NCBI GenBank assembly: GCA_049519175.1
Contig: JBEKQZ010000001.1
Coordinates: 463,679 to 527,678, forward strand
Origin: Candidatus Levyibacteriota bacterium
GTDB taxonomy: Bacteria > Patescibacteriota > Microgenomatia > Levybacterales > UBA12049
Direction: 5' to 3'
Length of the DNA: 64,000 nucleotides
Part shown: piece after piece, positions 28,567 through 47,006 of the stretch
Layout: the number at the start of each line of letters is the position of its first letter
How positions within the stretch are numbered: the first letter of the stretch is position 1
Program-made: the position numbers and the translations under genes
Notes under the pieces: model-generated
What the model was told of the DNA's origin: nothing
The model's database searches: none
What the model saw: only the letters and a program-made list of their open reading frames with translations

Positions 28567-28569
28567 TTT

Positions 28570-30017: not shown

Positions 30018-30499
30018 TGTGTTCTATTGATATCCGCTATGCACGTATCAAGCGTAACGTTATGACAATAATAGTTGCTGAGAGCAGGGTCTGCCGAACA
30101 TTTTCCGTCTGTCCATGCCACCGTCACTTCTGCTTGAATATTGTTATTGCATTTTGCAGACGATATAAGTTCAACTTGTCTAAAAAATTTATCCTGGATA
30201 TTCACGCTGTTATCGCTACAATTAGGATCAGTAATATGAGAATAAAAATCCGTCGTTCCTTGTGGAAGACACCAAATGCCCGTGCCCGAATAGGTTGCTG
30301 TATGAGCCCAATCTAGTTGACTTTTCTGCTGAACTATTTGTATTCCTTGTTGGGCGTAGCCCGTCGCCAAGTTTTGATATTCGGCAAAATCCGAATTACT
30401 AACAGCCGTTATCACGGCAACCGTAATTGCCGAAACTACGACTACAGCTGCTCCCAAAGCAACTAGTGCTTCAATTAGGGTTTGTCCTTTTTGATTCAT
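30014..30499 (-). CDS. type IV pilin-like pseudopilin
   Basis: N-terminus KGQTLIEALVALGAAVVV. Confidence 0.55.
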   Translation of the reverse strand: MNQKGQTLIEALVALGAAVVVVSAITVAVITAVSNSDFAEYQNLATGYAQQGIQIVQQKSQLDWAHTATYSGTGIWCLPQGTTDFYSHITDPNCSDNSVNIQDKFFRQVELISSAKCNNNIQAEVTVAWTDGKCSADPALSNYYCHNVTLDTCIADINRTQ

Positions 30500-31071: not shown

Positions 31072-31580
31072 GGATTATTAAGCACGAAATATTTTCCGGA
31101 GGTGCAGGTAGGACTTGCATTTGAATAAGGATTAGTTGATATCCCCTGACTGTCTCCGCTATTTTCAAGACAAGCACCAAGAGTGTAAGTAGTCCCAGCG
31201 CTGGATGAGTAATAATAGTTACCACCATTATAATAGCTGCTGCCGCTTGGATCCGTTGGGAGATTTTGCATATAGATTGTTGAACAAGCAGGATTTCCAA
31301 AGCAAGCTGTAGATCCGGTGCATGGAGGAGTATTAGCAGGGCAGGCAAATAGACCTGCTACATTTGATGTTCCACTTGGATAGCTGCCGTTGTCCGACCG
31401 ATAAATTTCCAGAGCTGACTGAATTTGCCGTAAATCCGACTTCCGTTGCGCATCCCTAGCCCTTTGCCTAACTCCGATAAAATTAACCATCAAAAGCGTG
31501 GCTAAAACGCCAATAATCGCTATCACTATCAAAAGCTCTATCAGCGTAAATCCCTTGTTTAAATTTTTAATTTTTTTCAT
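31068..31580 (-). CDS. type IV pilin (PulG/GspG-like major pilin)
   Basis: KGFTLIELLIVIAIIGVLA and RARDAQRKSDLRQIQSALEIY. Confidence 0.75.
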   Translation of the reverse strand: MKKIKNLNKGFTLIELLIVIAIIGVLATLLMVNFIGVRQRARDAQRKSDLRQIQSALEIYRSDNGSYPSGTSNVAGLFACPANTPPCTGSTACFGNPACSTIYMQNLPTDPSGSSYYNGGNYYYSSSAGTTYTLGACLENSGDSQGISTNPYSNASPTCTSGKYFVLNNP

Positions 31581-32077
31581 GGCGTCACGTCCGGACTGGA
31601 AACTCCATAGTTACAATCTCCACCACTACCGCAAGCTGTTTGCATATTAATGCTAGAGTTTGCGGGGGCCGAACATAAACCCCCGCTACAAGCTGCCGGA
31701 TCATTACTCCCTCTATCTAGGCTAGCATAAATATAATAAGATTGCCCAGAGGGCGAATAATAAACATAGTTTTTAGAAGAACTTGGATCTTGTGGTAAAA
31801 CGTCCATATAGGGCTGCCAACTGTTTCCCCAGGAAACTCCGGGAATTTGGTAAGGGGCTGTTGCGACAATCGGATATTTATTATTATCCTGGTAATATAC
31901 TTCCAAAGCTCTTTGTATTTGCGCCAAATCCGATTTACGTCTAACGTCGTTGGCTTTTTGAAATTGTGCTAAAGGATTTAAGACTAATAATGCCCCCACA
32001 GCCAAAATCCCCAAGATTCCGATGACCACTATTAACTCTATTAGCGTAAATCCTTCATTTTTAAATTTAATTTCCAT
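31577..32077 (-). CDS. type IV pilin (paralog)
   Basis: EGFTLIELIVVIGILGILA and RRKSDLAQIQRALEVYY. Confidence 0.75.
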   Translation of the reverse strand: MEIKFKNEGFTLIELIVVIGILGILAVGALLVLNPLAQFQKANDVRRKSDLAQIQRALEVYYQDNNKYPIVATAPYQIPGVSWGNSWQPYMDVLPQDPSSSKNYVYYSPSGQSYYIYASLDRGSNDPAACSGGLCSAPANSSINMQTACGSGGDCNYGVSSPDVTP

Positions 32078-32089
32078 AATCTTATTATA

Positions 32090-32929
32090 TTACGGCGTGC
32101 ACGGATCAACGCAAGGGCCAGTGCCGTTGGGAGGAGGATTACAATAACGATTGTAGTTAATGCTTGTATTGGTAGTTGGAGTTTCAACTCCGCATTGATG
32201 AGTTAACGGGTTATTTGGATAATATGCATATATTGCGTTACTACAATAACAAACAAAGTTAGCGGGTGGATTGTTAACAGGTGGACCAGAAGATGGTGTC
32301 CATATCGGCAACGGCACAATCTGCATTGTAACAATTTGGTTACAAATATTAACACTTATGCTGCCGGAAATCACACAATAGTTATAACCCAAAGATGCAT
32401 AGTTTGCCGGAACACAAGGTTGCCCGGCGGAGTCTTTCATTTGCTCTAAAGGACAGGAGAAGGAATTAGTAGAAGACGGCAAAACTAATTTACCAAACAG
32501 CACATTCCATTGTGGATTATTGTTTATGTCATCAAGATAGGCGTAATTTTTCCAACCCGACGAAACAATCGGGTCGTTAGGAATCGCTTGTATACTCTTA
32601 TCTGCAATAAGGGCTAAGAGAGGCTGAGGAGGATAATTATTGTTATCGTTGTAGTAGCTATCGAGCGCGGTCTGTAGTTGTTTTAAATCGTGCTGACGCT
32701 GCGCGTCCTGGCTTTTCTGGATTTGCGTGATTGGATTAAGAATAACTAAAACAAAAGTAACTAGAACTCCCAATATCATAATTACTACCAAAAGCTCAAC
32801 TAACGTAAAACCAGCAGCAAAAGAAGCTTTACTAGAATTAAATCTCCCCAAAAAAGACAAACCAGCGTTCCTAAAATTAGAAATGGGCCAAAAGGAAGAG
32901 TTGTGTTTTGGAAACTTTTTTTCTTCCAT
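32090..32929 (-). CDS. type IV pilin (paralog; start probably at an internal TTG near 32860)
   Basis: AGFTLVELLVVIMILGVLV and QRQHDLKQLQTALDSYY. The ATG at 32929 gives an unusually long 39-aa leader and a 130-nt overlap with pilD. An AGGAA-N7-TTG at 32860 is the more plausible start. Confidence 0.65.
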   Translation of the reverse strand: MEEKKFPKHNSSFWPISNFRNAGLSFLGRFNSSKASFAAGFTLVELLVVIMILGVLVTFVLVILNPITQIQKSQDAQRQHDLKQLQTALDSYYNDNNNYPPQPLLALIADKSIQAIPNDPIVSSGWKNYAYLDDINNNPQWNVLFGKLVLPSSTNSFSCPLEQMKDSAGQPCVPANYASLGYNYCVISGSISVNICNQIVTMQIVPLPIWTPSSGPPVNNPPANFVCYCSNAIYAYYPNNPLTHQCGVETPTTNTSINYNRYCNPPPNGTGPCVDPCTP

Positions 32930-33579
32930 AAAATAAGTATGATACCCACAATTGCTCCTGTCAAGAAAGCCAGGTATAGAGCAATCACGATATTGGGAAA
33001 ACCTAAAAATAAACCTAAAACAAAAGCCAATTTAATGTCTCCGCCGCCCATCCCGTCTTTCCCCCGAATAAGCTTAAAAACCAAAGAAGTAATTAAGAAA
33101 AAAAAGAACGCTAAAACGCCGCAGGCAAGATTGATGAATAACGATTGCGGATTAAAGAATAGCAGATAGAGAAAAATAATCCCTACAAGTGGGAAAAGAA
33201 TCTTATCCAAAATAAGACCGTATTTAAAATCCATGCAGAAAATAACAATCAAACCGGAAACAATAATCAAATGATAAATTACGGAGATTAATAATTGAGG
33301 ATTTGAAATTGGGAATATGTAAGTCAACACAAACAAAATTCCCGTGGAAACTTCTATTGCCGGATAGAAATAGGGAAGTTGATGCTTGCAATAGCGGCAT
33401 TTGCCTTTAGTGGAAATGAACGACAAAACCGGAATTAAATCTATAGCTTTGAGTTCTTTTTGGCAAAACTCGCAGTGGGAACGACCTTTGATCACGGTTT
33501 CGTTTCTTGGCAATCGGTCAACCAGTACTCCCAAAAATGAACCTAGAAACAGCCCGAGAATAAACAATAATAAAACCAT
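32800..33579 (-). CDS. pilD: prepilin peptidase (A24 family)
   Basis: N-terminal Cys pairs (CEFC...CRYC), polytopic, and the catalytic-Asp region GGGDIKL. Confidence 0.85.
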   Translation of the reverse strand: MVLLLFILGLFLGSFLGVLVDRLPRNETVIKGRSHCEFCQKELKAIDLIPVLSFISTKGKCRYCKHQLPYFYPAIEVSTGILFVLTYIFPISNPQLLISVIYHLIIVSGLIVIFCMDFKYGLILDKILFPLVGIIFLYLLFFNPQSLFINLACGVLAFFFFLITSLVFKLIRGKDGMGGGDIKLAFVLGLFLGFPNIVIALYLAFLTGAIVGIILILWKKKSFQNTTLPFGPFLILGTLVCLFWGDLILVKLLLLLVLR

Positions 33580-33616
33580 TAAAATTAGTATAACAAATTA
33601 AAATACCTTGAGGATT

Positions 33617-34303
33617 CTATCTCGTGCACCAGTAACAAACGCCAGTATGGTTACCCGTCGTTGGAGGAAAAGATGGACAATTAGTGCCAGCGCTGCCGTC
33701 CATATTATATATTGTGTTAGCGTCTTTTAATCCTGACTGAGAAATAGGAAGAAAACAGGCAACAAGAGTGTTAGCGTTAGAAGGACCGGCGTTACCGCCG
33801 CTGCTACCATAATATGAAACATAAATCTTTGACAAAGAACCAACAGCGGTAACAAATGACGCTTCTAGTTCTCGGTCAGCTATAAGCGGAGCGATACAGG
33901 AGGTAACAGTGCAACCAACTCCCGTACTAGCATTACCACCACTGCACAGTGGCATCTCATAAGGTGAAGACGCCTCCTGACCCGTCCCTCCCGTGTCCGT
34001 CTTGCCATTATTTACAGCTTCAGGAGCACAAGCCGCTACGCCGGCACCCCAAGGATAATCACTGTGCGTAGCATAATAGCGGATGTTGGCATCTATATAT
34101 TCCACCATTGTATTCTTAATATTAGCATCCGTGGCTTTATTTAGCTGTTCAAACGGATCGATAGTGGCAACCAAAGCGGCGGCTAAAATTCCTAAGATTC
34201 CGATAACAACCAACAATTCGATGAGGGTAAATCCTTTTTTCTGCTTCAGAAGTTTCTTCAGCTTTTTGAAAAGATTTTTCATGTATATACTAATATTACT
34301 CAT
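33617..34303 (-). CDS. type IV pilin with a Cys-rich C-terminal domain
   Basis: KKGFTLIELLVVIGILGILAA, with multiple Cys in the globular domain. Confidence 0.7.
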   Translation of the reverse strand: MSNISIYMKNLFKKLKKLLKQKKGFTLIELLVVIGILGILAAALVATIDPFEQLNKATDANIKNTMVEYIDANIRYYATHSDYPWGAGVAACAPEAVNNGKTDTGGTGQEASSPYEMPLCSGGNASTGVGCTVTSCIAPLIADRELEASFVTAVGSLSKIYVSYYGSSGGNAGPSNANTLVACFLPISQSGLKDANTIYNMDGSAGTNCPSFPPTTGNHTGVCYWCTR

Positions 34304-34337
34304 ATCTAAAAATAATTGTCAAGCCCCTCGTTTAAAG

Positions 34338-35582
34338 CTACTGGATACTAGAAATTAAACTGTAAATCGGCGTAATAACCGAGATGATTAAAAAAGCCAC
34401 CGCTATTCCCAGAACAATCATAATAAACGGCTCCATCGCGGTGGTTAAAGTTTTGACTCTGCCGTCAACTTCCCGCTCAAAATATTCGGAGGCTTTTCCT
34501 AAAGTTTCATCCATTTTCCCGGTTTGCTCGCCGACTTTAACCAATTGAATTAAAAGGGGAGGGAAGAGGGAATAATAAGACATTGCCTCGCCAACGCTGA
34601 CTCCTTTTTCAACCTGTTTGGAAACTGCCGTAATCGCGTTTCGGTAGTTGACATTACCGGTTGTTTCCGCCGTTTCCAAAAGCGCGTCGACCACCAAAGT
34701 GCCGGTGCCGACCAAAAGTCCCAGGGTTCTACTAAACTCCGCCAAAATACTTTGTTCGACTAGTTTACCAAAAATCGGTAGTTTTAACATAAACGAATCG
34801 ATAATCAATCTTCCATCGGCAGTTTTCGACCACCTTCGATAAAAAAGCAAGAGAACGACAAGCCCACCAAGGATAATCGGCCAGAAAGCCGCCACCAAAT
34901 TGGAAAGGCCAACCACTATTTGAGTCGGCAAGGGCAGCGGCACATTTAAATTTTGATACAAAACATCCAGCTGCGGCATGACAAAAACCATCATAATTAC
35001 AATTACGCCAACCATCATAATCACGACAATCGCCGGATACATTAGCGCTGATGTGACCGTGCTTTTTAGTTTGGATTGTTTTTCCAAATTATCTGCCAGT
35101 CTTAACAAAACCTTGTCCAATAGTCCGGACTGCTCACCGGCTTTAATAATGGAAACGTAAATATGATTAAAAACTTTGGGATATTTTTCGATTGACTGAG
35201 CAAAAGTTTTTCCTTCCTGGACATCGGCAATAATCGAGGTAATAATTTCAATCAGCGACTCGTTTTTGACTTGCTCTTTAAGAATTTCCAGTCCCCGCAT
35301 CAGCGTTAAACCCGAAGTCAGCATTGACGACAACTGTCTAGTAAACATTACCAAATCCGTATTGTTAATTTTGTTAAAAAAGGGAAGCTCAGTCCAAAAT
35401 TGATTATCAATTCTGGTTATGCTAACCGGAGTTAAACCTCTGGCCCGAAGATAACCGGCCGTTTCACCAATATCTTTGGCATCCAATAGGCCTTGGGAGA
35501 TTTTTCCCTCTTTTGTAATTGCTTTATATCTTAACCTCATATTAGCCGACCATACGCAAGAGATCCTCCGGCCGCAGCGCAT
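34338..35582 (-). CDS. pilC: type IV pilus platform protein PilC (GspF family)
   Basis: Two GspF repeats and 3 TM. The likely true start is MRLRYKAI at about 35540, which avoids overlap with pilT. Confidence 0.85.
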   Translation of the reverse strand: MRCGRRISCVWSANMRLRYKAITKEGKISQGLLDAKDIGETAGYLRARGLTPVSITRIDNQFWTELPFFNKINNTDLVMFTRQLSSMLTSGLTLMRGLEILKEQVKNESLIEIITSIIADVQEGKTFAQSIEKYPKVFNHIYVSIIKAGEQSGLLDKVLLRLADNLEKQSKLKSTVTSALMYPAIVVIMMVGVIVIMMVFVMPQLDVLYQNLNVPLPLPTQIVVGLSNLVAAFWPIILGGLVVLLLFYRRWSKTADGRLIIDSFMLKLPIFGKLVEQSILAEFSRTLGLLVGTGTLVVDALLETAETTGNVNYRNAITAVSKQVEKGVSVGEAMSYYSLFPPLLIQLVKVGEQTGKMDETLGKASEYFEREVDGRVKTLTTAMEPFIMIVLGIAVAFLIISVITPIYSLISSIQ

Positions 35583-36624
35583 AAGATTTGGCGGTTTCCA
35601 GACTAATTGTTCCGGACAAAACTAAAGAAGCCAGCGATGACTCAAGCGGAATCATGCCATAGTCTTGGGAAGTTTGGATAATTGAGTCAATCAAATGGGT
35701 TTTGCCGTCCCTAATATTGCTGGCAATTGCTGTAGTTCCTAATAAGACTTCGACGCCCGGAATTCGGCCCCCGTTTAATTGAGGGATTAATCTTTGCGAA
35801 ACCACGCCTTTTAAAGTCGCCGCCAGTTGGGCTCTAATCTGGATTTGTTGGTCGGCCGGAAAAGAATCAATAATTCTATCGACCGTCTGCGAAGCGGAAT
35901 TAGTATGCAGCGTTGAAAAAACCAAATGACCGGTTTCGGCAATGGTCATGGCGGCGGCAATTGTTTCCGGGTCGCGCATTTCGCCGACCAAAACCACGTC
36001 CGGGTCCTCCCGCAAGGCGCTCCTTAAAGCCAGCGGCCAGGAATGGGTATCCAAATCCATTTCTCTTTGCGAAATAATACTCTTGCCGCCCGGGTAAACA
36101 TATTCAATCGGATCTTCAATGGTTAAAATATGCACTGCTTTACCTAAGTTTATTTCATTGATAATTGCCGCTAAAGTGGTCGATTTCCCCTGACCGGTCG
36201 GCCCGGTAACCAGCACAAAACCTTGTTTCAGCTGCGCAAAACTGTGACAAATTTTTGGCAAATGTAATTCTTCAACGGTCCTAATTGTCGGCTGCAAAAA
36301 CCTAAACGCTGCACTTAAAACTCCACGCTGATAATAAAGATTCGTCCTAAATCTGCCCAAATCTCCGTAAGCGCCGCCGCCGAAACCAAACGAAAAATCA
36401 ATTTCTTTATTGTTGACCAATAATTCTTTTTGCTCAGGTTTTAAAATTGAAAAAACCATTGTTTCCACTTCCTGCGGCGAGAGAGGGGGATAGTTAGACA
36501 GATAACGCAGGACGCCATCAATTCTTAAAGCCGGTGAAGTTCCCGGCAGCAAATGCAAATCCGAAGCGTTATTTTTAATTGTAACGTCTAATAATTCGTT
36601 TATTAACATATTATTCTTGAGCAA
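35542..36624 (-). CDS. pilT: type IV pilus retraction ATPase PilT
   Basis: Walker A GPTGQGKSTT, Asp/His boxes, and a length of about 360 aa. Confidence 0.85.
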   Translation of the reverse strand: MLKNNMLINELLDVTIKNNASDLHLLPGTSPALRIDGVLRYLSNYPPLSPQEVETMVFSILKPEQKELLVNNKEIDFSFGFGGGAYGDLGRFRTNLYYQRGVLSAAFRFLQPTIRTVEELHLPKICHSFAQLKQGFVLVTGPTGQGKSTTLAAIINEINLGKAVHILTIEDPIEYVYPGGKSIISQREMDLDTHSWPLALRSALREDPDVVLVGEMRDPETIAAAMTIAETGHLVFSTLHTNSASQTVDRIIDSFPADQQIQIRAQLAATLKGVVSQRLIPQLNGGRIPGVEVLLGTTAIASNIRDGKTHLIDSIIQTSQDYGMIPLESSLASLVLSGTISLETAKSYALRPEDLLRMVG

Positions 36625-38350
36625 CTCTTAGCACTTCTTCAACCGTCGTAATGCCTTGTAAAACCTTAATGTAACCGTCTTGTTTCATCGTAATCATTCC
36701 CTCTGCAATTGCTTCTTTTTCGATTGCTCCGCTGTCGGCCCTTTGCAAAACCAGACTGGCCATTTTTTCCGTTATCGGTAGCGTCTCGAAAATTCCGATG
36801 CGGCCAAAATAGCCTGAATTACCACATTGGTCGCAACCTTTACCTTTATAAAGTTTTATTTCCTTATCAACCGGATAATATTTGTCCAATTCCTGTTTCA
36901 TTTCGTCAAGAATTTGCGCCGGAACAACGTATTCCGTTTTACAGTGGTCGCAGATTTTTCTCACAATTCTTTGTCCCACAACCGCGTTCATGGTTGATGC
37001 CAGTAAAAATGACTCCGCACCCAAATCCAAAAGCCTGGGGAGTGCGCCGGCGGCGTTGGAAGTATGCAGGGTTGAAAAAACCAAATGGCCCGTCAGAGCG
37101 GCCTGAATTGCCAAATCCGTTGTCTCTTTGTCACGGATTTCTCCAACTAGAATAATGTTAGGATCCTGCCGCAAAAATGCCCTTAACCCGTCGGCAAAAG
37201 TTAAACCGACCGCCGGATTTATCTGCACCTGATTAATGCCGGACATTTGATATTCAATCGGGTCTTCCAGAGTCATAATGTTCACCCGCGTCGTATTTAA
37301 TTTTTCCAAAACCGAGTAGAGCGTAGTTGTTTTTCCACTTCCAGTTGGTCCAACTACAATAATAATGCCGTGCGGACGAAGCATTGCCGTTTCCAAATTT
37401 TTAAGTGATGTACCGGTAAGTCCGAGTTCTTGCAGAGTCGGAACCCCACCGGATTTCCTAAGCAGCCTCATGACGATTTTTTCGCCAAAGGCTGTGGGCA
37501 AAACCGAAATACGCAAGTCCACTTCCTTATCTTCGACTTTAAAATTAAAGCGACCATCCTGCGGAGTGCGGTGCTCATCGATTTTCATTTCGGAGAGAAT
37601 TTTGATTCTGGAAATTACCGCTTCTTGCACGCTTTTTGGCAAACTCAACCGGTCATACAAAATTCCGTCAATGCGGTAACGCACTCTCACCCGGTCTTCC
37701 TGCGGCTCAATGTGCACATCTGAAGCACGACTGGTAACCGCATATTCCAAAATGGTCGAAACAATTTTGGCAATCGGCGCTTCTTTAATAATTTGGGCGA
37801 TTTGCGTCGTATCAACCGTTTTGATGGCGCTTTTATTTTCGGTTTCTTTTAACGCTTCACCGACTTCGCCGACCAATTCCTGCCTATATTGCTGATTTAT
37901 CGCCATTTCTACGTCTTTCTGCGAGGCGGCAAAAGTTTTAATCGTTAAACCGGTTTTTTCGCGGACAAAAGTTACCGCTTCCAAATCAACCGGGTTACTC
38001 ATCGCCACCGACAGCTCTTTGGTTTTATCATCGTAGGCAAACGGCATTAGCGAAAATCTTTCGGCCACCGCTCTTGGCACAAAACCGATCGCCTGGGGAG
38101 AAAAAGACGCGCCTTCCAGTGAAATAAAGGGAATACCTAAAAGCTTGGCTTTGGCCTGCGCCAATTTTTCCGGCGGAACCAGGTTTAAAGACTCGACTAC
38201 TGTTTCTTCGGAAACACCTTCGCTGGCACTTTTAACTTTAACATTATCGTATTGCTCTTTGGTAATTAATTTTTGTGAAAGCAGAGTATCCGCTAAACTT
38301 TGCGTCGAATCGAGAACCTGTGATGTTGAATTTTGAGTATCACTGGGCAT
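36611..38350 (-). CDS. pilB: type IV pilus extension ATPase PilB (GspE family)
   Basis: GPTGSGKTTTLYS and a tetracysteine zinc motif (CDHCK...CDQCGNSGY). Confidence 0.9.
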   Translation of the reverse strand: MPSDTQNSTSQVLDSTQSLADTLLSQKLITKEQYDNVKVKSASEGVSEETVVESLNLVPPEKLAQAKAKLLGIPFISLEGASFSPQAIGFVPRAVAERFSLMPFAYDDKTKELSVAMSNPVDLEAVTFVREKTGLTIKTFAASQKDVEMAINQQYRQELVGEVGEALKETENKSAIKTVDTTQIAQIIKEAPIAKIVSTILEYAVTSRASDVHIEPQEDRVRVRYRIDGILYDRLSLPKSVQEAVISRIKILSEMKIDEHRTPQDGRFNFKVEDKEVDLRISVLPTAFGEKIVMRLLRKSGGVPTLQELGLTGTSLKNLETAMLRPHGIIIVVGPTGSGKTTTLYSVLEKLNTTRVNIMTLEDPIEYQMSGINQVQINPAVGLTFADGLRAFLRQDPNIILVGEIRDKETTDLAIQAALTGHLVFSTLHTSNAAGALPRLLDLGAESFLLASTMNAVVGQRIVRKICDHCKTEYVVPAQILDEMKQELDKYYPVDKEIKLYKGKGCDQCGNSGYFGRIGIFETLPITEKMASLVLQRADSGAIEKEAIAEGMITMKQDGYIKVLQGITTVEEVLRVAQE

Positions 38351-38414: not shown

Positions 38415-39050
38415 ATGCAAAGCATTTTAATAACCGGCAAGGATACAGAAAAATTAAGAGAAGCCGCCCGGGCCATTTGTGACGAAAATAAAGTTTCCCG
38501 TTTTGACAGGGAAATTATTGTCACCGAAAAAACGGTCGGAATAGGGGATATCCGTAAACTGCAGGAAAAATTGTTTTTAAAACCACTTGAAAGCGAAATC
38601 AAAGCGGTAATTTTGGAAGCTTTTTTCGGTATGACCACGGATTCGCAAAACGCTTTTCTAAAAGTACTGGAAGAACCACCAAGCGATACGATTATTATGA
38701 TTTTAACTTCGTCTTTGGATTTTGTTTTACCGACTGTTTTATCCAGATGTAAATTATTTAGTCTTGATCAGGTCAGAAAACTCACCGACGAAGAAATCGC
38801 TAACAATCTAAAAATTATTTCTGAACTTAAAAACGGCGGCGCGTCAAAGGCTTTAAAGATTGCCCAAAGCTATGGCAAAGATAGGGAAACGGCTTTGCAA
38901 TTTTTGGAAGGACTGATTATTAGCCTGCATACTAATCTGGAAACTGAAAATTTACAAATTTTGAAGTCTTCGCAAAAAACTTACAATATTATTAAGACCA
39001 CTAATGTTGCTCCTCGTTTCGCCCTCGAGAATCTTTTTTTAAGCTCCTAA
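38415..39050 (+). CDS. holB: DNA polymerase III delta-prime-like subunit (short)
   Basis: LKVLEEPP and SRC motifs of AAA+ clamp-loader delta-prime. Confidence 0.6.
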   Translation: MQSILITGKDTEKLREAARAICDENKVSRFDREIIVTEKTVGIGDIRKLQEKLFLKPLESEIKAVILEAFFGMTTDSQNAFLKVLEEPPSDTIIMILTSSLDFVLPTVLSRCKLFSLDQVRKLTDEEIANNLKIISELKNGGASKALKIAQSYGKDRETALQFLEGLIISLHTNLETENLQILKSSQKTYNIIKTTNVAPRFALENLFLSS

Positions 39051-39575
39051 AGGAAATTTCCCACCCGCCCAGTCTTCGGGCAGACTAAATTTTGCCAAAA
39101 CTTTTAAGTCTAAAGGGTTATTAGCCAGTTGAATTACCTGCAGTAAATCCTGTCTAGTTACTTCCGGTGGCGGAGCAGTAACCTCTTTTTCCCTGGCAGC
39201 AACAATTGACGGGTCTTCTTCTTGATGCCCACGCGAAAAGAGAATTGACGGCATACCGGCTACGGTCGGTGCAAAACGACCTCTCTTAGTCTGACTTTTA
39301 TTGGTAATTATCACTCGTAAATCCTGCTCGGAGCGTGCATCATAGTAATAAATTGAAAGTGTTGCCTTTGCTACCGTAGATCTCCGTCGGGGCCGATAGG
39401 TAAGCACTAATACCCATTGCTCATTCGGATTATGTATGCAACCAAAATCAAAATAGTCAGGACGATCACGTCTGATGTGCTCTCTGACGGCCCGCAAAGC
39501 TCCCCTCACCAGCTTAGGTCTTTCGCTTTCTCTCTCCGCTCTTTTTTTATCAAAATCTATTATTTCCGTTGTCAT
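39039..39575 (-). CDS. hypothetical protein (178 aa, Arg-rich, higher GC)
   Basis: Long ORF whose composition is atypical for this genome. Confidence 0.4.
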   Translation of the reverse strand: MTTEIIDFDKKRAERESERPKLVRGALRAVREHIRRDRPDYFDFGCIHNPNEQWVLVLTYRPRRRSTVAKATLSIYYYDARSEQDLRVIITNKSQTKRGRFAPTVAGMPSILFSRGHQEEDPSIVAAREKEVTAPPPEVTRQDLLQVIQLANNPLDLKVLAKFSLPEDWAGGKFPLGA

Positions 39576-39655
39576 CGCTTGTGAATTATAGCGCTAAGTG
39601 GAGTTGAAAACAAAAATTTTGAGTTTTTTAGGCTTATTTTGCTATAATCACACAT

Positions 39656-39847
39656 ATGGAAAAAGATAAGCAGGGTGCATCTGGATTAAGAAGATTTACT
39701 AAAAACCGCGGTTACTGGGGCACACTGCCTGGAGCAGTCAGACAAGGTCTTGAAGAAACCGGCAGCATCTCTGGCATCGCCGCTACCGTTGCGGAAATCG
39801 GAACCGCCGGGAGAAAATCTGTTGTTATAAAACCACAATCCCGTTAA
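39656..39847 (+). CDS. hypothetical small protein (63 aa)
   Basis: TATAAT at 39644-39649 lies 6 nt before the ATG. Confidence 0.35.
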   Translation: MEKDKQGASGLRRFTKNRGYWGTLPGAVRQGLEETGSISGIAATVAEIGTAGRKSVVIKPQSR

Positions 39848-39870
39848 ACTTTTAAAAAGTGGCTTATGCA

Positions 39871-39918
39871 TTTAATTAATCCTCTAGTTGATTTATTTTC
39901 TAGACTATGGTATTAAAT
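39871..39918 (+). repeat. 48-nt 5'-UTR/promoter repeat, copy 1 (TTGATT-N17-TATTAA)
   Basis: About 85% identical to copy 2 at 40617..40664. Each copy precedes a Cys-rich ORF. Confidence 0.6.
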
Positions 39919-40209
39919 AGTCCTATGGCAGACGAACGTTACAGAGGCGGTAAAGTAACAGCAGCGTGTTTTGGCAATTGCCCTAATTTACAACCGCTTC
40001 TTAAAGCAGCATTTATGGATGACGCGCATTTTGCGCCTACAGAAGGATTAGTCCGTATCCCCAATGGACGGTGTCTGGAAAAAATAGAGATTTGGAAAAG
40101 AAACGCAGGGGGCTGTTCTGGACCGGAAAGAAAAACTTCCGCAGGAACTGCTGGAGAAACAATTTTTGTCTGTCCGGTTGCCGCGACAACTTCTATGCCC
40201 AAATTGTAA
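39907..40209 (+). CDS. hypothetical Cys-rich small protein
   Basis: Five Cys (CFGNC...C...CSG...C). The start may be MADERY at 39925. Confidence 0.4.
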   Translation: MVLNSPMADERYRGGKVTAACFGNCPNLQPLLKAAFMDDAHFAPTEGLVRIPNGRCLEKIEIWKRNAGGCSGPERKTSAGTAGETIFVCPVAATTSMPKL

Positions 40210-40247
40210 AGGTTGAAATCTCAAGTTAAACTGCTATAATGCTTTTT

Positions 40248-40583
40248 ATGGCAAATCACTTTGAAGCGCTAGATTTAGACAGAGAAAGAGCGGCAATGAT
40301 TAGAAAAACAAGACCGTTCATTATAGAAGCTCTCCAGACATTGGGGAACCGGGAAGTTTCGCTGGGAGATATAAACGAAACAGTCAGAGAACTTTACCCG
40401 GATGGAAAATTCGGAATGGGAATAGTTCCGACAGTTCTGGACGAATTAGAAGGAGCTGGAATAGTTATTTGCATCCAAACTCCAGTCAATCCAAGAACAA
40501 ATGGTCATATGATAGGCAAGTCTGATTGGAGAGCACTAACTTATCGCTTCGCAGAACCGCCAGAAACCGCAATCGAACACTAA
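40248..40583 (+). CDS. hypothetical protein (about 111 aa)
   Basis: TATAAT at 40235-40240 lies 7 nt before the second ATG. Confidence 0.4.
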   Translation: MANHFEALDLDRERAAMIRKTRPFIIEALQTLGNREVSLGDINETVRELYPDGKFGMGIVPTVLDELEGAGIVICIQTPVNPRTNGHMIGKSDWRALTYRFAEPPETAIEH

Positions 40584-40616
40584 CTTAACGACTCCCGGGA
40601 GAATTTGGAATTAAGA

Positions 40617-40664
40617 TTATTTAACCCTCTAGTTGATTTATTTCTAGAACTATGATATTAAATC
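40617..40664 (+). repeat. 48-nt 5'-UTR/promoter repeat, copy 2
   Basis: See copy 1 at 39871..39918. Confidence 0.6.
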
Positions 40665-40667
40665 TCC

Positions 40668-40997
40668 ATGGCAAGTCCTTATACTGAAATTAATCCAAGA
40701 TGTCGTGATTGTCCACGAATAAAAGATGCCTATCGAAGAGCAGCCGCTTTTACGATTACTACACCAATGCTATTTGCTAGTTTTCCTTCCTTAATCATTC
40801 CAGACGAAGAAGGATTACGGTTACAACAAAAAACAATTGAAGACTCTGCCAATTGTCCGGGAATAACGGAAGAAGTTATTCTTGTAAAAAAGGGTTTGCC
40901 CTGGAATAGAAAAACAGTCCAAGAACGAGTACCAGGATGCGGGCTTAGTCAACCGCCCCCGCCTTGCGTTATTCCTTCTGAACTCGTAGAAGTTTAA
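40668..40997 (+). CDS. hypothetical Cys-rich small protein (109 aa)
   Basis: Six Cys (CRDC...C...CGL...C). Confidence 0.4.
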   Translation: MASPYTEINPRCRDCPRIKDAYRRAAAFTITTPMLFASFPSLIIPDEEGLRLQQKTIEDSANCPGITEEVILVKKGLPWNRKTVQERVPGCGLSQPPPPCVIPSELVEV

Positions 40998-41029
40998 ATT
41001 AAAACCGAAAATGCTATAATCTTTTTACT

Positions 41030-41230
41030 ATGCATGAAAGCGAACCAAACATAAAACCAACGAGAGAACCTCCAGCGATGCCGCCGGCACACCCGGGAGA
41101 AACCTCAAGAAGACAAGCGCCCGGATTTTTACAGACAGTTTCCGAAGTAATCAGAGACTATCCTTTTGGATTTTATTCCGCGTTAAGTGACCTCGTTCGT
41201 GGTAGGGGAGAGTTTGCAAAAAAAGAATAA
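41030..41230 (+). CDS. hypothetical small protein (66 aa, Pro-rich N-terminus)
   Basis: TATAAT at 41015-41020 lies 9 nt before the ATG. Confidence 0.35.
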   Translation: MHESEPNIKPTREPPAMPPAHPGETSRRQAPGFLQTVSEVIRDYPFGFYSALSDLVRGRGEFAKKE

Positions 41231-41233
41231 CCG

Positions 41234-41262
41234 CGAAGAAAATTTGGGGCTGAAGTTTATGG
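41234..41262 (+). repeat. intergenic repeat family, copy 1 (…GAAAATTTGGGGC…)
   Basis: Core GGGGAAAATTTGGGG-like element. All six copies lie on the same strand. Confidence 0.55.
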
Positions 41263-41278
41263 GTTTTATGGATTTTCC

Positions 41279-41707
41279 TTAAACCAGCAAAGACGAAGAC
41301 GGTGCCGTCAGGACAATCCGAATAAGACTACCTGGGCCAACTCGTGCTTCATCAAGCGTAGTTTGTAGCTCTCTTTGCTTCTTTACAAAATCTTGCGCCA
41401 ATGCAGATTCTTCCCTTTCTAATTCATGCTTGCCTTGATTAAGCGCGAGCTTTCTTACATCCGAATCCAAAACGCCGCGAACAGTTCCATCGTCTAAGTC
41501 TTGCCCTATAATCGAGGTAGCATCCGCTAATGATAAACTAACGCCTAGAGACATTGGATGTTTTGGATCTCCGTAAAAAACCTGAGCCTCAACCGTTCTT
41601 ACGCTACGAATCCTAAAAGGAGTATCACCTGAAACCGGCGTTGACTCTGGAACATTAGGGGCACCTTGCGAACCTCTTTCCTTTCCTCTGCCGAAAAATC
41701 CTGCCAT
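41279..41707 (-). CDS. hypothetical protein (142 aa)
   Basis: ORF between repeat copies 1 and 2. Confidence 0.4.
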   Translation of the reverse strand: MAGFFGRGKERGSQGAPNVPESTPVSGDTPFRIRSVRTVEAQVFYGDPKHPMSLGVSLSLADATSIIGQDLDDGTVRGVLDSDVRKLALNQGKHELEREESALAQDFVKKQRELQTTLDEARVGPGSLIRIVLTAPSSSLLV

Positions 41708-41756
41708 TTTGCAATAATAGCACTAATTTATGCATTGTCAATACTATAAGCAACTT

Positions 41757-41782
41757 TGCCGGGGAAAAGTTGGGATTGGAAT
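41757..41782 (+). repeat. intergenic repeat family, copy 2 (GCCGGGGAAAAGTTGGGATTGG)
   Basis: It shares AAGCAACTTTNCCGGGGAAAA with copy 6. Confidence 0.55.
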
Positions 41783-41787
41783 TTAAA

Positions 41788-42114
41788 TTACCTATGTTGA
41801 TTTTTCTTCAAACTTTTTGCTGCAATAACCAAAGATATTACACCTGCAGCACCGATAACAGGACCCAAAACCATACTTCCTACGGCACCATGAACTAGGT
41901 CTTGGTATCCCGAATCTGCCAGAGTAACCTCTTGCCCCGTTTGTCCAGCGTAAACAAGAATATTAGACGCTTGTTTTATTTCGTCAGTCCCTTTATCAAA
42001 CAACTTAATTGATAAGGCTGAAATCGCAAGCGAACCAGCGACAAGAGTCGAACCCCCGGCTATTAAAGGCAGCGCTTCTATTTCCTTAGCGTTCATAGGA
42101 AGCAGATTATACAA
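41788..42114 (-). CDS. small membrane protein
   Basis: Two hydrophobic segments. Confidence 0.4.
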   Translation of the reverse strand: MYNLLPMNAKEIEALPLIAGGSTLVAGSLAISALSIKLFDKGTDEIKQASNILVYAGQTGQEVTLADSGYQDLVHGAVGSMVLGPVIGAAGVISLVIAAKSLKKNQHR

Positions 42115-42128
42115 TAAATCGGTAAATT

Positions 42129-42168
42129 AGGGAAAATTTGGGGCGGAAAACCCGTAGTGGTATAATCC
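42129..42168 (+). repeat. intergenic repeat family, copy 3, fused to TTGGGG-N17-TATAAT
   Basis: AGGGAAAATTTGGGGCGGAAAACCCGTAGTGGTATAAT. The ATG lies 6 nt after the TATAAT. Confidence 0.6.
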
Positions 42169-42172
42169 GGTT

Positions 42173-42691
42173 ATGCAGATTAATTTTTATCCCGAATACG
42201 ATAATTCGGATTTTGAAAAAGCCGCTAAGGAATATGCAAACATCTGGAGCGAAGAAGGACAACGGATAACCGAAACAATCGAAAAGATAAGCGGATTAAA
42301 ATTTAGAGAAAAAACTATCAACGCTGTTATTCACAATCGGATTTCCTACTCGCACCCGTTACAGCTACAAACCGGGCTTTCTCTTGAAGAAAAGAGAGGA
42401 ACAATAACGCATGAATTATGTCACAGATTGTTATTGGCAAATGAAATTAAATGGGAAAAAATTAAAGGGAAGAATGGCTTCTACCTGCTTGCTCATAGAC
42501 CTGTAGATTTAATTCTTTATGATATTTGGATTAAACTTTATGGAGAAAATTTTGCTAAAAAACACGTCAAGTATGAGATCGCTCTTTGGGATGTAAAGGG
42601 AATAAGTCCATATAAGATTGCCTGGGACTGGGCTTTGGGAATGACAAAAGACAAACGCCACCAGGAATTTCAAAAATACCTCCAAAAATAA
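42173..42691 (+). CDS. putative HExxH zinc metallopeptidase-like protein
   Basis: THELCHRLL contains an HExxH motif. Confidence 0.4.
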   Translation: MQINFYPEYDNSDFEKAAKEYANIWSEEGQRITETIEKISGLKFREKTINAVIHNRISYSHPLQLQTGLSLEEKRGTITHELCHRLLLANEIKWEKIKGKNGFYLLAHRPVDLILYDIWIKLYGENFAKKHVKYEIALWDVKGISPYKIAWDWALGMTKDKRHQEFQKYLQK

Positions 42692-42724
42692 CCGGGGAAA
42701 CTTTGGGGCGAAAATCTCGTTTGA
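42692..42724 (+). repeat. intergenic repeat family, copy 4
   Basis: CCGGGGAAACTTTGGGGCGAAAATCTCG. Confidence 0.55.
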
Positions 42725-42734
42725 GAATATCTAC

Positions 42735-43166
42735 TTAAGCCTTTACGGGGACACCATTTACTGCTTGAAGCATTGTTCTAATACGCATCAGTGTTGGTAT
42801 TCCGACAGAGCACAACTCACTATCGGAAATTAGCCATCTTTTTTGATCCCATAATAATCTTCCATTTATTCGTCCAACATCAGCTATATCTCCCTTAGCT
42901 GTAAGGTAATGCCGTACGCCTCTTTTTCCAGGAGTTACAGGCCATAGTCTTACCATTCCATCTAAACATTCAATCTTAGAAACAACTGGGACCTCTATAA
43001 AGACTCCTAAAATATCTAAGTATTTTGCGCCTCGAGCAAGACCTTTTTTAACGGCTCCTGCCCTGCGGTAATTGCCACATTCCGAGCCTAATTCATGCCA
43101 AATCCTATCCATGTCTGCAACTGCGGCACTTAAGAAAGCTGAGCTATTCTGTTCAACAGTCATCAT
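42735..43166 (-). CDS. hypothetical protein (143 aa)
   Basis: ORF between repeat copies 4 and 5. Confidence 0.4.
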   Translation of the reverse strand: MMTVEQNSSAFLSAAVADMDRIWHELGSECGNYRRAGAVKKGLARGAKYLDILGVFIEVPVVSKIECLDGMVRLWPVTPGKRGVRHYLTAKGDIADVGRINGRLLWDQKRWLISDSELCSVGIPTLMRIRTMLQAVNGVPVKA

Positions 43167-43216
43167 AAGAGCTAAGATTATAGCAAAAATTAATCTAAAA
43201 TACTATAGGAATAGTC

Positions 43217-43240
43217 CGCGGGGGAAATTTGGAGAACTAT
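43217..43240 (+). repeat. intergenic repeat family, copy 5 (degenerate)
   Basis: CGCGGGGGAAATTTGGAG. Confidence 0.4.
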
Positions 43241-43611
43241 GTTCTATCTAAACTTTTAGGGCTTGGTATGGCTCTCTCTCTTAAACCGTCTACCAGATGC
43301 AAGACCGTAGACGGAGGCAATCCTTCTTTAATCCCAAGGTCAATCAAAGCTAAAGAGCAATAAATTCCCTCCAGTTCAAGACCGTCTAGAATTATACTTC
43401 TCATTTCGTCTCTTTCTTCTGGACTGGAAAGGCTTGATACCATAAAAGCTTCAAACTCTGGACCTAATTTTTCTTGCGCAGAGTTTGCATTAGCCCCAAG
43501 TTGAGTTACTCTCGCTGATAATTGACGAGCTTCATGCAGTTGTTTTTCCTGCTCTTGCGGATTCTGTCTTCCCGAACCAATTATTCTAGCTAAAATGCCC
43601 TTTTCTTTCAC
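43237..43611 (-). CDS. hypothetical protein (124 aa)
   Basis: ORF between repeat copies 5 and 6. Confidence 0.4.
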   Translation of the reverse strand: MKEKGILARIIGSGRQNPQEQEKQLHEARQLSARVTQLGANANSAQEKLGPEFEAFMVSSLSSPEERDEMRSIILDGLELEGIYCSLALIDLGIKEGLPPSTVLHLVDGLRERAIPSPKSLDRT

Positions 43612-43652
43612 ACCGTGGGATTATAACACTCGTCAGTCAAAAAGCAACTTTA

Positions 43653-43694
43653 CCGGGGAAAATTTGGGGCGGAAATCCCGTAGTGATATAATTT
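43653..43694 (+). repeat. intergenic repeat family, copy 6, fused to TTGGGG-N17-TATAAT
   Basis: CCGGGGAAAATTTGGGGCGGAAATCCCGTAGTGATATAAT. The GTG lies 6 nt after the TATAAT. Confidence 0.6.
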
Positions 43695-43698
43695 CATA

Positions 43699-44325
43699 GT
43701 GAAAATTGTTAAAGCTTTTTCCAACACGAAAGATAATACTTTTTGCTTACAAGCATGTATTCAAAGCGTTTTAAATTTCTATTTCCCCACTAAAACATTT
43801 TCTGAATCTGAAGTAAGTAAAAATACAGGATATCATCCTAAGTATTTTTCCTGGAGCCCACAGGCAGTCGTATGGCTAAATAGTTTAGGTCTCAATGTGA
43901 AATTATACTCTCCCTTCAATTACAACAGACTGGTAAATGGAGGATTAGCTTATTTGAAAGAGTTTAAGAAAGATATATACGATCTTGAGGAAAAAAGAGG
44001 TGAGTATAAATTTCTTCCAGAAATTCAAAAAGCAGCAAAAGAAATGGTCGACAGGAAACTTTGGATTGATCAATTGATGAAAATCGAAGATCTGGAAAAC
44101 CAATTAAGCAAGCAAAACACTTTATGTATCGGAAAAACCATATATGAATGGCTTGATGGACACTATATCGCTGGAACTTCTCACTTCATAGTAGTTGTAA
44201 AAAAATATTCATCTGGAATCTGGCTTATTCAGGATCCTGGACTACCTATGGTAGGAAATCGAAAAGTTAACCAATCTATTAATAACCATAGTATTTTAGG
44301 AGACATTATTCTAGTAAAAAATTAG
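43699..44325 (+). CDS. papain-like cysteine peptidase (C39_2/BtrH-N-like)
   Basis: FCLQACIQSVLNFY places the Cys at a helix N-cap, as in the C39_2 family. A His lies later in HYIAGTSHFIVVV. Confidence 0.4.
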   Translation: MKIVKAFSNTKDNTFCLQACIQSVLNFYFPTKTFSESEVSKNTGYHPKYFSWSPQAVVWLNSLGLNVKLYSPFNYNRLVNGGLAYLKEFKKDIYDLEEKRGEYKFLPEIQKAAKEMVDRKLWIDQLMKIEDLENQLSKQNTLCIGKTIYEWLDGHYIAGTSHFIVVVKKYSSGIWLIQDPGLPMVGNRKVNQSINNHSILGDIILVKN

Positions 44326-44348
44326 CTTCAGCAAATTTGAAGCAAAAT

Positions 44349-44903
44349 TTAAAGTTCGACTTCTTTTTTTAAAGGCTCTAGTCCTTTCAAAGTAACTCTC
44401 GCAATTGACATTATAGAACGGACAACTGGATTTATTCCTCCCACCTGAAGCTCTTTCCCAATCTGTTGTAAAACAAATTCTTTATCCTTTTTAGGCTTAC
44501 CCGAATGAATACTACCTTCAACGTTGCATAAAAATTTTATAAGGTCAAACACAGTAAACCAATTTCCCGATGATTTCATTACCATTGTTTTTAACATTTT
44601 GCCTCTATCAACTTCTATTGGAGCTGCTGAATAAGCAGTCTCTGGATCAAAACCATCCTGTATCGACCAAAAGACCGCTTCCTGCATTAAAGGATTAATC
44701 TGACGACCATTTATTATAAATTTAATTTTAAATCTTCCTTTTTCGTTTACTTGATCTATTAATGGATAATCATCAAGTAATAATTTTCTCAAAAGACCTG
44801 CAATCATTAAGATTTCATAAGCATCTTGAGAGCTTAATCTATTTTTTATATCTTCAAGAGTTTTTATAAATAGAACCTTTTTATCCATAAAAAAATTATA
44901 CAC
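44349..44903 (-). CDS. hypothetical protein (about 180 aa)
   Basis: Long ORF. The start may be MDKKVLF. Confidence 0.4.
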   Translation of the reverse strand: MYNFFMDKKVLFIKTLEDIKNRLSSQDAYEILMIAGLLRKLLLDDYPLIDQVNEKGRFKIKFIINGRQINPLMQEAVFWSIQDGFDPETAYSAAPIEVDRGKMLKTMVMKSSGNWFTVFDLIKFLCNVEGSIHSGKPKKDKEFVLQQIGKELQVGGINPVVRSIMSIARVTLKGLEPLKKEVEL

Positions 44904-45005
44904 CTTACCCCTAGAAATTTGGTCTCAAATTTGCTCCGTTCGACACCACTCAGGATCGCAGTTAGGCCTTAATTCCTACTGGAATTTTAAGCCTAACTTT
45001 GCTAA

Positions 45006-47006
<2,001 letters not shown>

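Follow-up and report, generated by a model that had tools for sequence, protein, structure and literature searches.

Why should a short DNA sequence recur in one gap after another of a block of small genes, always on the same DNA strand irrespective of the direction in which these genes are read? The question is raised by a 64-kb window, i.e. the whole stretch of DNA analysed here, from a member of the Candidatus Levybacteria (Patescibacteria; the sources label the proteins as 'Candidatus Levyibacteriota' or 'Patescibacteria group'). Between holB and gyrB, from 39.0 to 45.0 kb, this window holds short open reading frames (ORFs) on both strands as had been stated in an original prediction for this DNA; there are 13 of them, including the two Cys-rich ones. 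The same prediction regarded the block as an accessory island threaded by a six-copy repeat and as a candidate toxin/immunity or bacteriocin-like locus. Our comparison of related loci leads to a different answer: The repeats may be the junction (recombination) elements of an array of gene cassettes, and they would in addition supply a -35 region. We hold this reading tentatively and would not quite grant it an even chance.

The six copies themselves are real. A search for the 15-mer GGGGAAAATTTGGGG with up to two mismatches finds them at positions 41235, 41761, 42129, 42694, 43220 and 43655, all on the plus strand, whereas shuffled sequence contains 0.43 copies on average and none of 100 shuffles reaches six. 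With a weight matrix built from these copies (c1 to c6) they score 26 to 42 bits, as compared to 12.5 for the next best site of the 64 kb, and there is no further strong copy in the window. They occupy six consecutive gaps between 41.2 and 43.7 kb with one copy in each, just as had been claimed, and every type of gap is represented: the gaps of c1 and c4 are convergent, those of c2 and c5 separate tandem genes of the minus strand, and those of c3 and c6 are divergent. The copies c3 and c6 have a 37-nt stretch in common that is 95% identical and runs into an extended -10 region, TGGTATAAT and TGATATAAT, respectively. As predicted, these two copies are fused to an extended -10 region; 6 nt separate it from the start codons of the HExxH gene g172 (ATG, 42173) and of g208 (GTG, 43699), a gene for a 208-amino acid protein. 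Two more copies had escaped the original prediction, a degenerate one (c0) at 40599 and a terminal variant just upstream of gyrB, and a string near-identical to the latter, CCCCTAGAAATTTAG, is located ahead of gyrB in the related locus L029. Two details of the original prediction did not stand up to inspection: The degenerate copy proposed at position 59356 has only CCGGGGAAAA in common with the repeat, does not contain TTTGG and did not come up as a scoring site, and the island is not richer in GC (0.33-0.43 vs. about 0.40 for the window). The window and the near-identical strain L005 differ at four positions in 2726 bp; two of these differences are located within c2 (41758 and 41775), and both bring c2 closer to c6, which fits either homogenisation by gene conversion or constraint, i.e. 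selection toward the consensus.

Alignment of the copies reveals an element of two to four C/G-rich bases, a nearly invariant 10-bp core, GAAAATTTGG, and a right half of about 8 nt, NNNNGAAA. The conserved part spans approximately 22-25 bp and is asymmetric. The sequences on both sides of the core are specific for the genome: They read CCGGG-core-GGCGGAAA in the window, core-GACGGAAA in the related loci L046 and L092, CCCC-core-TTTTGAAA in L025, L027, L028 and L047, and core-GGTTGAAA in L049 and L050. The identity of the flanks is 0.55 within a genome as compared to 0.44 between genomes (permutation test, p < 0.0005). RNAalifold returned no pairs for 33 copies with their flanks, and neither a dyad nor a hairpin was detected. 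A search of positions 38000 to 46000 against Rfam gave only two matches with E values of about 1, both within holB and none at the repeat. The island has no blastn match in phage and plasmid collections. A scan of a genome contig collection that carries no source species for GGGAAAMTTTGGGGCGRAAA resulted in 11 single chance matches in unrelated organisms, and 15 single matches of viral contigs to GAAAATTTGGTTTTGAAA, nearly all of them at the same coding site of one phage group, proved to be unrelated as well. We also dropped several likenesses to known sites, i.e. to hix/gix half-sites (GGTTTTnGATAA), difSL, the attC core GTTRRRY and the target choice of IS200/IS605 or IS607, because the element lacks the symmetry or the partner genes that these systems require, and because the match is present only in the variants of some genomes.

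The comparison with other genomes is based on the surroundings of several homologues of the HExxH protein, on 80 JGI metagenome loci (588 kb) anchored on the HExxH alignment, and on near-identical strains from other samples that were found by exact-protein look-ups. The HExxH protein has 97 homologues and is a conserved protein of the lineage rather than an accessory effector. In about 12 related genomes the interval between holB and gyrB consists of a variable set of small, mostly orphan genes. In the clade with at least about 46% identity of the HExxH protein, the order is uniform: pilus genes, holB, variable small genes including the HExxH gene, and gyrB. The HExxH gene is the only gene of the interval that is common to these relatives. 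The core is present in all of these islands and in nearly every intergenic gap, with up to 12-13 copies in L027, and it always lies on the holB-to-gyrB strand, whereas about a quarter to a third of the array genes point in the opposite direction. It is invariant across genomes whose HExxH proteins share only 46% identity. Inside the islands of seven distinct genomes, 23 exact copies of the core are present on the array strand and none on the other strand; a single occurrence outside falls within the gyrB coding sequence. Among the 80 metagenome loci there are 46 copies on the plus strand, all in loci with the island context, and five on the minus strand. Three of the latter belong to a second array past gyrB in L092, which is inverted along with its genes. 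This second array (positions 4100-6837 of L092, on the opposite strand) is found in a locus whose HExxH protein is 80% identical to that of the window, and it indicates that arrays are not limited to the holB-gyrB interval. Distant HExxH homologues in other contexts are not accompanied by the motif.

The genes between the elements exchange places. According to protein clustering, the array families shift their position relative to the HExxH gene between genomes yet keep their orientation relative to the core: g66, an 89-amino acid family, CutA1 and a 236-amino acid hydrolase are co-oriented with it, and g142, g143, a 110-amino acid family and a 145-amino acid family are anti-oriented. One family is located in the main array of one genome and in the second array of another. 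Homologues of g66 are found upstream of the HExxH gene in L046 and downstream of it in L029; a homologue of g142 that is 57% identical lies downstream of it in L050, and a homologue of g143 that is 37% identical lies upstream of it in L046, likewise in anti-orientation. The g142 homologue in L046 has a protein identity of 27%, and the promoter in front of it has an identity of 92%. In DNA alignments of two families, the homology spans the gene together with its own -10 region or promoter and ends before the element, which carries the flanks of the host genome. About 85% of the 114 array proteins from 13 loci do not belong to any Pfam family, and the remaining ones are miscellaneous (CutA1, EamA, FemAB, HIT, peptide deformylase, CAP, Trp-repressor-like, PadR and AbiTii). 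The cassette-like variability between strains that had been anticipated is therefore confirmed by the comparison of the loci.

Several breakpoints of insertions or deletions coincide with the 3' edge of the core. Both Cys-rich genes are missing in the strains L006 and L007, for which the overall identity is 94%. The second Cys-rich cassette is inserted exactly after GAGAATTTGGA, at a point where the element of L006 is unbroken: In L006, the core of c0 is directly followed by the right half CGAAAGC and the promoter of g66, whereas in the window c0 is separated from its own right half by the cassette. The first Cys-rich cassette ends on its right side immediately ahead of GGTTGAAATC, which constitutes the right half of the repeat in L006. 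In L046, g66, a single element and the HExxH gene follow each other, and in the window the same flanks are 894 bp apart. The intervening segment holds c1, g142, c2, g102 and c3, i.e. two anti-oriented genes, and the single copy of L046 (at 9960) aligns to c1 with its left flank and to c3 with its right flank. Finally, the L128 scaffold departs from its near-identical relatives immediately past the core and then runs into a gap. Ten places that carry the L025-type HExxH gene have the same gene order and yielded no new breakpoints; indels between L047 and L048 were disregarded, as they are located inside genes and look like assembly artefacts. Larger pieces of the array have been exchanged as well. 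From position 41735, which is 26 nt before c2, to about 45400 inside gyrB, the window differs from L006 at only five positions in 3.7 kb, and the flanks of this tract are 4-20% divergent; by this pattern, the tract is a recent recombination import. L003 matches the window without a difference across the island, and its divergence from the window in the first half of holB is about 15%. Such near-identical tracts in divergent backgrounds show that homologous recombination, anchored in the conserved flanking genes or close to them, carries the array between strain backgrounds as well.

The tentative reading of the repeats as cassette junctions has the merit of explaining the invariant and asymmetric core, the polarity that is tied to the array, the presence at gene boundaries including convergent ones, the genome-specific flanks, the fixed polarity of the cassettes, the breakpoints at the core, and the restriction to one or two arrays. 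The following model can be proposed: Single-gene units, each with its own -10 region and a leaderless start, would lie between the elements, and breakage and joining of the DNA at the core's 3' edge (GG^) would account for their gain, loss and relocation. The new junctions would take the version of the element that is resident in the genome, so that all copies stay co-oriented regardless of the flanking gene. For co-oriented cassettes, the -35 region that goes with the extended -10 region of the cassette itself would be provided by the TTG of the element, and the A-tract of the element would take the part of an UP-like element; the -35 role may be either co-opted or built in. Whole segments of the array would also be swapped between strains via ordinary homologous recombination anchored in holB and gyrB. 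We infer that the core is recognised by a protein, i.e. a recombinase, that each event has the direction (insertion or excision) which we assign to it, and that the element is duplicated at insertion. It is tempting to go one step further and to speculate that bacteria of the candidate phyla radiation (CPR) possess a gene-capture system distinct from integrons. Its enzyme, a recombinase with its gene elsewhere, would cut or join the core at the 3' edge and might belong to a novel type or be an Xer or serine recombinase put to new use; every insertion would restore the junction element in the resident version, and the captured leaderless gene would obtain its -35 region from the element. This extended proposal is possible, but we consider it rather unlikely.

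Several observations weigh against cassette junctions. The weakest link is the enzyme: No integrase, resolvase or transposase was found with Pfam among the 114 array proteins of the 13 loci or in their immediate neighbours, and the only recombinases seen in the window are encoded by an Xer-like gene 11.5 kb away and by a small serine recombinase gene 38 kb away. Moreover, the element lacks the dyad symmetry or fold of known recombination sites, and plain homologous recombination between repeats would also leave breakpoints at the edge of the core. The insertions of the two Cys-rich cassettes did not duplicate the element. The array is stable in 22 contigs of one species (L025 type), which indicates that turnover is episodic and not rapid everywhere. 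Finally, the confinement of the repeat to arrays rests on about 10% of the source genome and is hence not proven genome-wide.

Both recombinases deserve a brief description. The Xer-like tyrosine recombinase (311 amino acids) to the right of the array has a Phage_integrase domain (E = 1e-42) and a SAM-like N domain; it is a candidate for a trans-acting enzyme, and nothing links either this protein or the serine recombinase to the repeat. The latter (234 amino acids; Pfam Resolvase, E = 2e-26) is encoded at the edge of a low-GC block (0.30-0.35) of orphan ORFs from 0.4 to 7.5 kb in which no copy of the repeat is present. A tRNA-Leu gene lies beside this block, which may be an integrated element.

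The main competitor is an exclusively cis-regulatory module. In this case, the core would form the -35 region plus UP element of a promoter that is specific for the island, or a dedicated activator or sigma factor would bind to it. The array would have grown by duplication of a promoter together with its gene, copies without a gene would be relics or drivers of antisense RNA, and the rearrangements at the repeat would be a side effect of homologous recombination among promoters that resemble each other. Of 74 copies examined, 32 are located between a stop codon and a start codon of plus-strand genes, 16 between convergent genes, 14 between divergent genes, and eight between two anti-oriented genes, and a co-oriented gene follows downstream of 46 copies. 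The commonest start codon of such a gene is found 41 nt after the first base of the core, and this class consists of the TTG of the core, a 17-bp spacer, TGnTATAAT, about 6 nt and the start codon. Judged from this geometry, it corresponds to a leaderless extended -10 promoter with the TTG as its -35 region; c3, c6 and about 20 copies in the relatives conform to it exactly. In c3, TTGGGG, a 17-bp spacer, TATAAT, 6 nt and ATG follow each other, and the same layout precedes the HExxH orthologues of nine genomes. Intact cores may stand beside a decayed -10 region, as in c4 of the window and in the copy at 4742 of L027; both are clearly decayed forms of active promoters, and c4 is homologous to the active promoter GAAAATTTGGGACGGGAAATTTTTGATATAAT of L046. 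The arrays without any recombinase are also in agreement with a regulatory function.

However, the 16 convergent copies and the eight between anti-oriented genes add up to 24 of the 74 without a co-oriented downstream gene, and their cores are as intact as those of the others. In the window, c1, c4 and c5 have no usable -10 region. The anti-oriented genes have promoters of their own and never carry the motif on their strand (no minus copies in the islands). The distance from the core to the -10 region is not fixed either: In a second class of copies, a separate TTGACA intervenes between the core and the -10 region, and the start codon follows the core at a distance of 52-69 nt, without helical phasing. 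Several HExxH orthologues have kept the -10 region and lost the motif, and the invariant GG after TTG does not match the TTGACA that is used elsewhere in the genome. Other promoters of the window have TTGACA or no -35 region, but never the repeat. Moreover, genome-specific flanks beside shared cassettes would require an additional process of homogenisation. Thus, the earlier view that the repeat is not a simple promoter holds, since it is locked to one strand irrespective of gene orientation and confined to the island, and we regard a purely regulatory origin as unlikely, though worth serious attention. Independently of the repeat, TATAAT boxes of the leaderless type, often after TGn and 6-10 nt before the start codon, precede many genes of the window (e.g. 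at 4732 on the minus strand, 11969, 25566, 53826, 58254, and 59240 on the minus strand), and where a -35 region is present, it is TTGACA. This pattern points to leaderless mRNAs being widespread in the source genome.

Alternatively, the repeats might be structural or insulating protein-binding sites, one oriented site per gene boundary, that act as a polar roadblock terminator, as a silencer of acquired genes or in chromosome organisation. The strict polarity of the element and its tight fit against gene ends would suit such a role: In the 74 copies, an upstream co-oriented gene usually stops 4-6 nt before the core, and a downstream anti-oriented gene stops 13-26 nt after its first base. In addition, the island lacks intrinsic terminators (a G+C-rich hairpin with a T-run), none being detected at any repeat. 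Genes elsewhere in the genome, on the other hand, manage without the element, no candidate protein was found, and the breakpoints at the core as well as the genome-specific flanks around shared cassettes are left unexplained. We therefore consider insulation improbable. Still less can be said for a selfish miniature repeat of the MITE (miniature inverted-repeat transposable element), REP (repetitive extragenic palindromic) or BIME (bacterial interspersed mosaic element) type that has spread through intergenic regions: The element is indeed short, intergenic, repeated within the genome and present in genome-specific variants, but it has neither terminal inverted repeats nor a palindrome or fold, it is confined to one or two arrays in a single orientation rather than dispersed, and the invariance of its core across distant genomes is unlike a decaying repeat, all of which makes this origin very improbable.

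A toxin/immunity or bacteriocin-type locus that is co-regulated through the repeat, as originally suggested, seems hardly credible. The presence of two peptidase-fold proteins and two small Cys-rich proteins might favour it. However, the island encodes neither an ABC transporter nor a leader peptide, and the window proteins do not match any toxin, immunity, transporter, toxin-antitoxin or defence model; PADLOC assigned none of nine window proteins to a family, and there was no NCBIfam match. The 114 array proteins of the relatives gave only isolated matches to AbiTii, PDC-S19 and HIT, and the repeat is found there beside unrelated genes such as those for FemAB, CutA1, EamA, HIT and peptide deformylase. 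Furthermore, the HExxH gene is conserved in the lineage, and the Cys-rich genes are strain-specific insertions with a different promoter of their own. The HExxH protein g172 was modelled with a pLDDT (predicted local distance difference test) of 95; H80, E81, H84, H108 and E135 are invariant. With an HExxH motif, a downstream Glu ligand and a thermolysin-like fold, the model corresponds to a minimal gluzincin-like protein that is not specifically SprT (Pfam, E = 0.045) or ImmA. For g208 (pLDDT of 92), which had been described as a papain/C39-like peptidase, the papain-like fold with the conserved residues C16, H162 and D179 is supported: Foldseek places the PeiR endoisopeptidase, phytochelatin synthase and staphopain at the top and the C39 domain of PCAT1 only in 11th position, and profile matches to C39 are below the threshold (E = 0.014). 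g208 is a stand-alone protein and not a fusion of a C39 domain to an ABC transporter as in the PCAT proteins of class II bacteriocin systems, and its homologues elsewhere are encoded outside any such array.

The known systems that come closest to the proposed cassette array are sedentary chromosomal integrons and clusters of attC sites lacking integrases (CALINs). They, too, occupy a fixed chromosomal locus with many single-gene, mostly orphan cassettes; their co-oriented repeats are homogeneous in each genome and differ between species, and their cassettes are shuffled, differ between strains and have a fixed polarity relative to the repeat. The locus studied here likewise has co-oriented repeats between single-gene cassettes of strain-variable content. 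However, no IntI is encoded next to the array, the nearest tyrosine recombinase being the Xer-like protein, and no attC structure is present: attC sites are imperfect palindromes of 57-141 bp that fold as single strands, whereas the repeat is only about 22-25 bp long, lacks the R''/L''-L'/R' dyad and does not form pairs. Since IntI and attC are both missing, the array should not be filed as an integron. Moreover, neither attI nor Pc is recognisable, each cassette brings a -10 region of its own with the repeat supplying the -35 region, roughly one in four to one in three cassettes is anti-oriented, and the lineage is that of the CPR/Patescibacteria. Sigma-70 promoters of the leaderless type with an UP element, a -35 and an extended -10 region resemble c3, c6 and the corresponding copies of the relatives in the A-tract, the TTG, the 17-bp spacer, TGnTATAAT and the start codon 6-9 nt further on; here, in contrast, the core is conserved where no gene follows, is locked to the strand of the array rather than to that of the gene, is absent from all other promoters of the window, and has an invariant GG unlike TTGACA.

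Other systems resemble the array in single aspects. The vsp and vsa loci of Mycoplasma are variable multigene loci with a conserved recombination site before each gene that overlaps the promoter or 5' sequence; they share with the array the variable multigene locus in a reduced genome and the short conserved sequence before genes, but their sites invert and occur in both orientations, with a dedicated recombinase next to them, and the genes encode paralogous lipoproteins. Modules that depend on dif and Xer, such as integrative mobile elements exploiting Xer (IMEX) and the pdif modules of Acinetobacter plasmids, are gene modules bounded by short sites with the recombinase encoded elsewhere; dif sites are, however, 28-bp imperfect palindromes, and pdif sites alternate in orientation, whereas the element described here is asymmetric and always direct. 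In its architecture only, the array is reminiscent of clustered regularly interspaced short palindromic repeats (CRISPR), with identical genome-specific direct repeats as a backbone and exchangeable inserts, but here the inserts are whole genes of 300-900 bp, the spacing is irregular, and there are neither cas genes nor a hairpin in the repeat.

In full-text literature searches we found no description of the motif or of cassette or integron-like arrays in CPR bacteria, and such an array does not seem to have been described so far. The genomes of CPR/Patescibacteria are very small, and these bacteria presumably depend on hosts. Little is known about the ways in which they obtain and diversify accessory genes, and a cassette array at a fixed position with a conserved junction element would offer a concrete mechanism that can be tested. 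It would extend the idea of gene-cassette platforms past integrons, to a site without attC-like structure or a linked integrase, and gene capture would provide tiny symbiotic genomes with a built-in means to try and exchange small genes at one chromosomal site. The fast-evolving orphan proteins in which the array is enriched are natural candidates for host-interaction factors. Even if the repeat were only a promoter module, an island-specific regulon and leaderless extended -10 transcription would be documented in this lineage; a dedicated capture mechanism, if confirmed, would be considerably more interesting.

Coordinates of the array, its repeats and other features of the window
Feature	Position	Strand	Remarks
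Serine recombinase gene	402..1106	+	small; left part of the window
tRNA-Leu	9020..9105		
Type IV pilus/competence-type cluster	27532..38350	-	
holB (DNA polymerase III delta')	38415..39050	+	Pfam DNA_pol3_delta2, E = 1.6e-22; conserved left anchor, syntenic in all related loci
g178	39039..39575	-	orphan restricted to the source species; no family match; TATAAT (leaderless-type) 9 nt before ATG
g63	39656..39847	+	small ORF; weak coding evidence
Cys-rich cassette 1	39848..40211	+	ORF 39925-40209; own promoter module; absent from L006/L007
g114	40248..40583	+	111 amino acids from a leaderless ATG; TGCTATAAT 7 nt before ATG
Repeat c0	40596..40610	+	degenerate; core GAGAATTTGG at 40599; weight-matrix score 12.4
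Cys-rich cassette 2	40609..41001	+	ORF 40668-40997; absent from L006/L007
g66	41030..41230	+	cassette family co-oriented with the repeat
Repeat c1	41229..41257	+	core 41238-41247; convergent gap
g142	41279..41707	-	cassette family anti-oriented to the repeat; fast-evolving; own promoter TTGACA-16-TATTAT
Import tract (recent recombination import)	41735..45400		
Repeat c2	41755..41783	+	core GAAAAGTTGG at 41764-41773; between two minus-strand genes
g102	41788..42096	-	orphan without homologue beyond the source species; TGTATAAT 9 nt before ATG
Repeat c3 with extended -10	42123..42166	+	-10 at 42158-42166; predicted promoter of g172
g172 (HExxH)	42173..42691	+	predicted minimal gluzincin-like metallopeptidase; sole array gene conserved across genomes
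Repeat c4	42688..42716	+	core GAAACTTTGG, then decayed -10 TGAGAATAT; convergent gap
g143	42735..43166	-	cassette family anti-oriented to the repeat
Repeat c5	43214..43242	+	core GGAAATTTGG; between two minus-strand genes
g124	43237..43611	-	orphan without homologue beyond the source species; TGTTATAAT 8 nt before GTG
Repeat c6 with extended -10	43649..43692	+	predicted promoter of g208
g208	43699..44325	+	208 amino acids, GTG start; papain-like (clan CA, C39-related) cysteine peptidase-fold protein
g184	44349..44888	-	low-GC gene; flanked by 21-nt inverted repeat 44330-44350/44915-44935
Terminal variant of the repeat	44908..44922	+	CCCCTAGAAATTTGG, one A short; just upstream of the gyrB leader
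gyrB leader	44930..45017	+	
gyrB	45018..47006	+	conserved right anchor of the array
Xer-like recombinase gene	56578..57513	-	right of the array

The coding status of the small ORFs is supported in part: g178, g66, g142, g143 and g184 can be regarded as genes, whereas g63 is doubtful and g114 is disrupted in L006. For g178, the differences between the window and L006 fall on the three codon positions as 8/7/20, and this excess at the third position suggests a coding sequence; the corresponding values for g63 are 5/7/7. The putative promoter of g63 (TTGAGT-18-TATAAT) overlaps the degenerate repeat-like sequence AAAAATTTTGAG. g114 has an amino acid identity of 67% to its counterpart in L006, where the frame is disrupted and split into two ORFs. 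Diverged homologues of g66, g142 and g143 exist in other genomes; g102, which probably encodes a membrane protein, g124 and both Cys-rich genes are orphans at the level of the species. For the protein of the second Cys-rich cassette, only two relatives were found among 5.8 billion proteins. The two Cys-rich cassettes have a 47-nt 5' module in common (39872-39918 and 40617-40663) that is 83% identical and contains a 5-bp inverted repeat, TCTAG-N12-CTAGA, around a TTGATT -35 region; this module could be an operator or the end of a mobile unit. The two Cys-rich proteins are not detectably related to each other. The identical spacings of 526 bp and 1459 bp had hinted at a tandem duplication of a three-gene module, an idea that was dropped because neither g142 and g143 nor the two Cys-rich proteins are related.

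g184 has the lowest GC content among the island genes (0.33) and belongs to a large uncharacterised family of 1319 cluster representatives with the invariant residues D39, P82, G125 and H128, for which neither a Pfam model nor a PADLOC family was found. The gene-strand switch at 38.4 kb and a local minimum of the GC skew suggested an origin of replication, but there is no cluster of TTATCCACA-like DnaA boxes between 39 and 45 kb. In L022 (around 7020) and L027 (around 7640), 'empty' units of 100-160 bp between two copies of the repeat contain the same perfect palindrome, CCAGTATACTTGTATACTAGTG, which may be an operator. A conserved leader of about 85 nt with a hairpin (TTAGGCCTTAATTCC/GGAATTTTAAGCCTAA) precedes gyrB in the window and in L047 and has no Rfam match. 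Finally, the type IV pilus or competence-type cluster of the window is complete (PilM, prepilin peptidase, pilins, PilC, PilT and PilB) and directly adjoins holB and the array in all relatives, a neighbourhood that may be relevant if cassettes are exchanged via DNA uptake.

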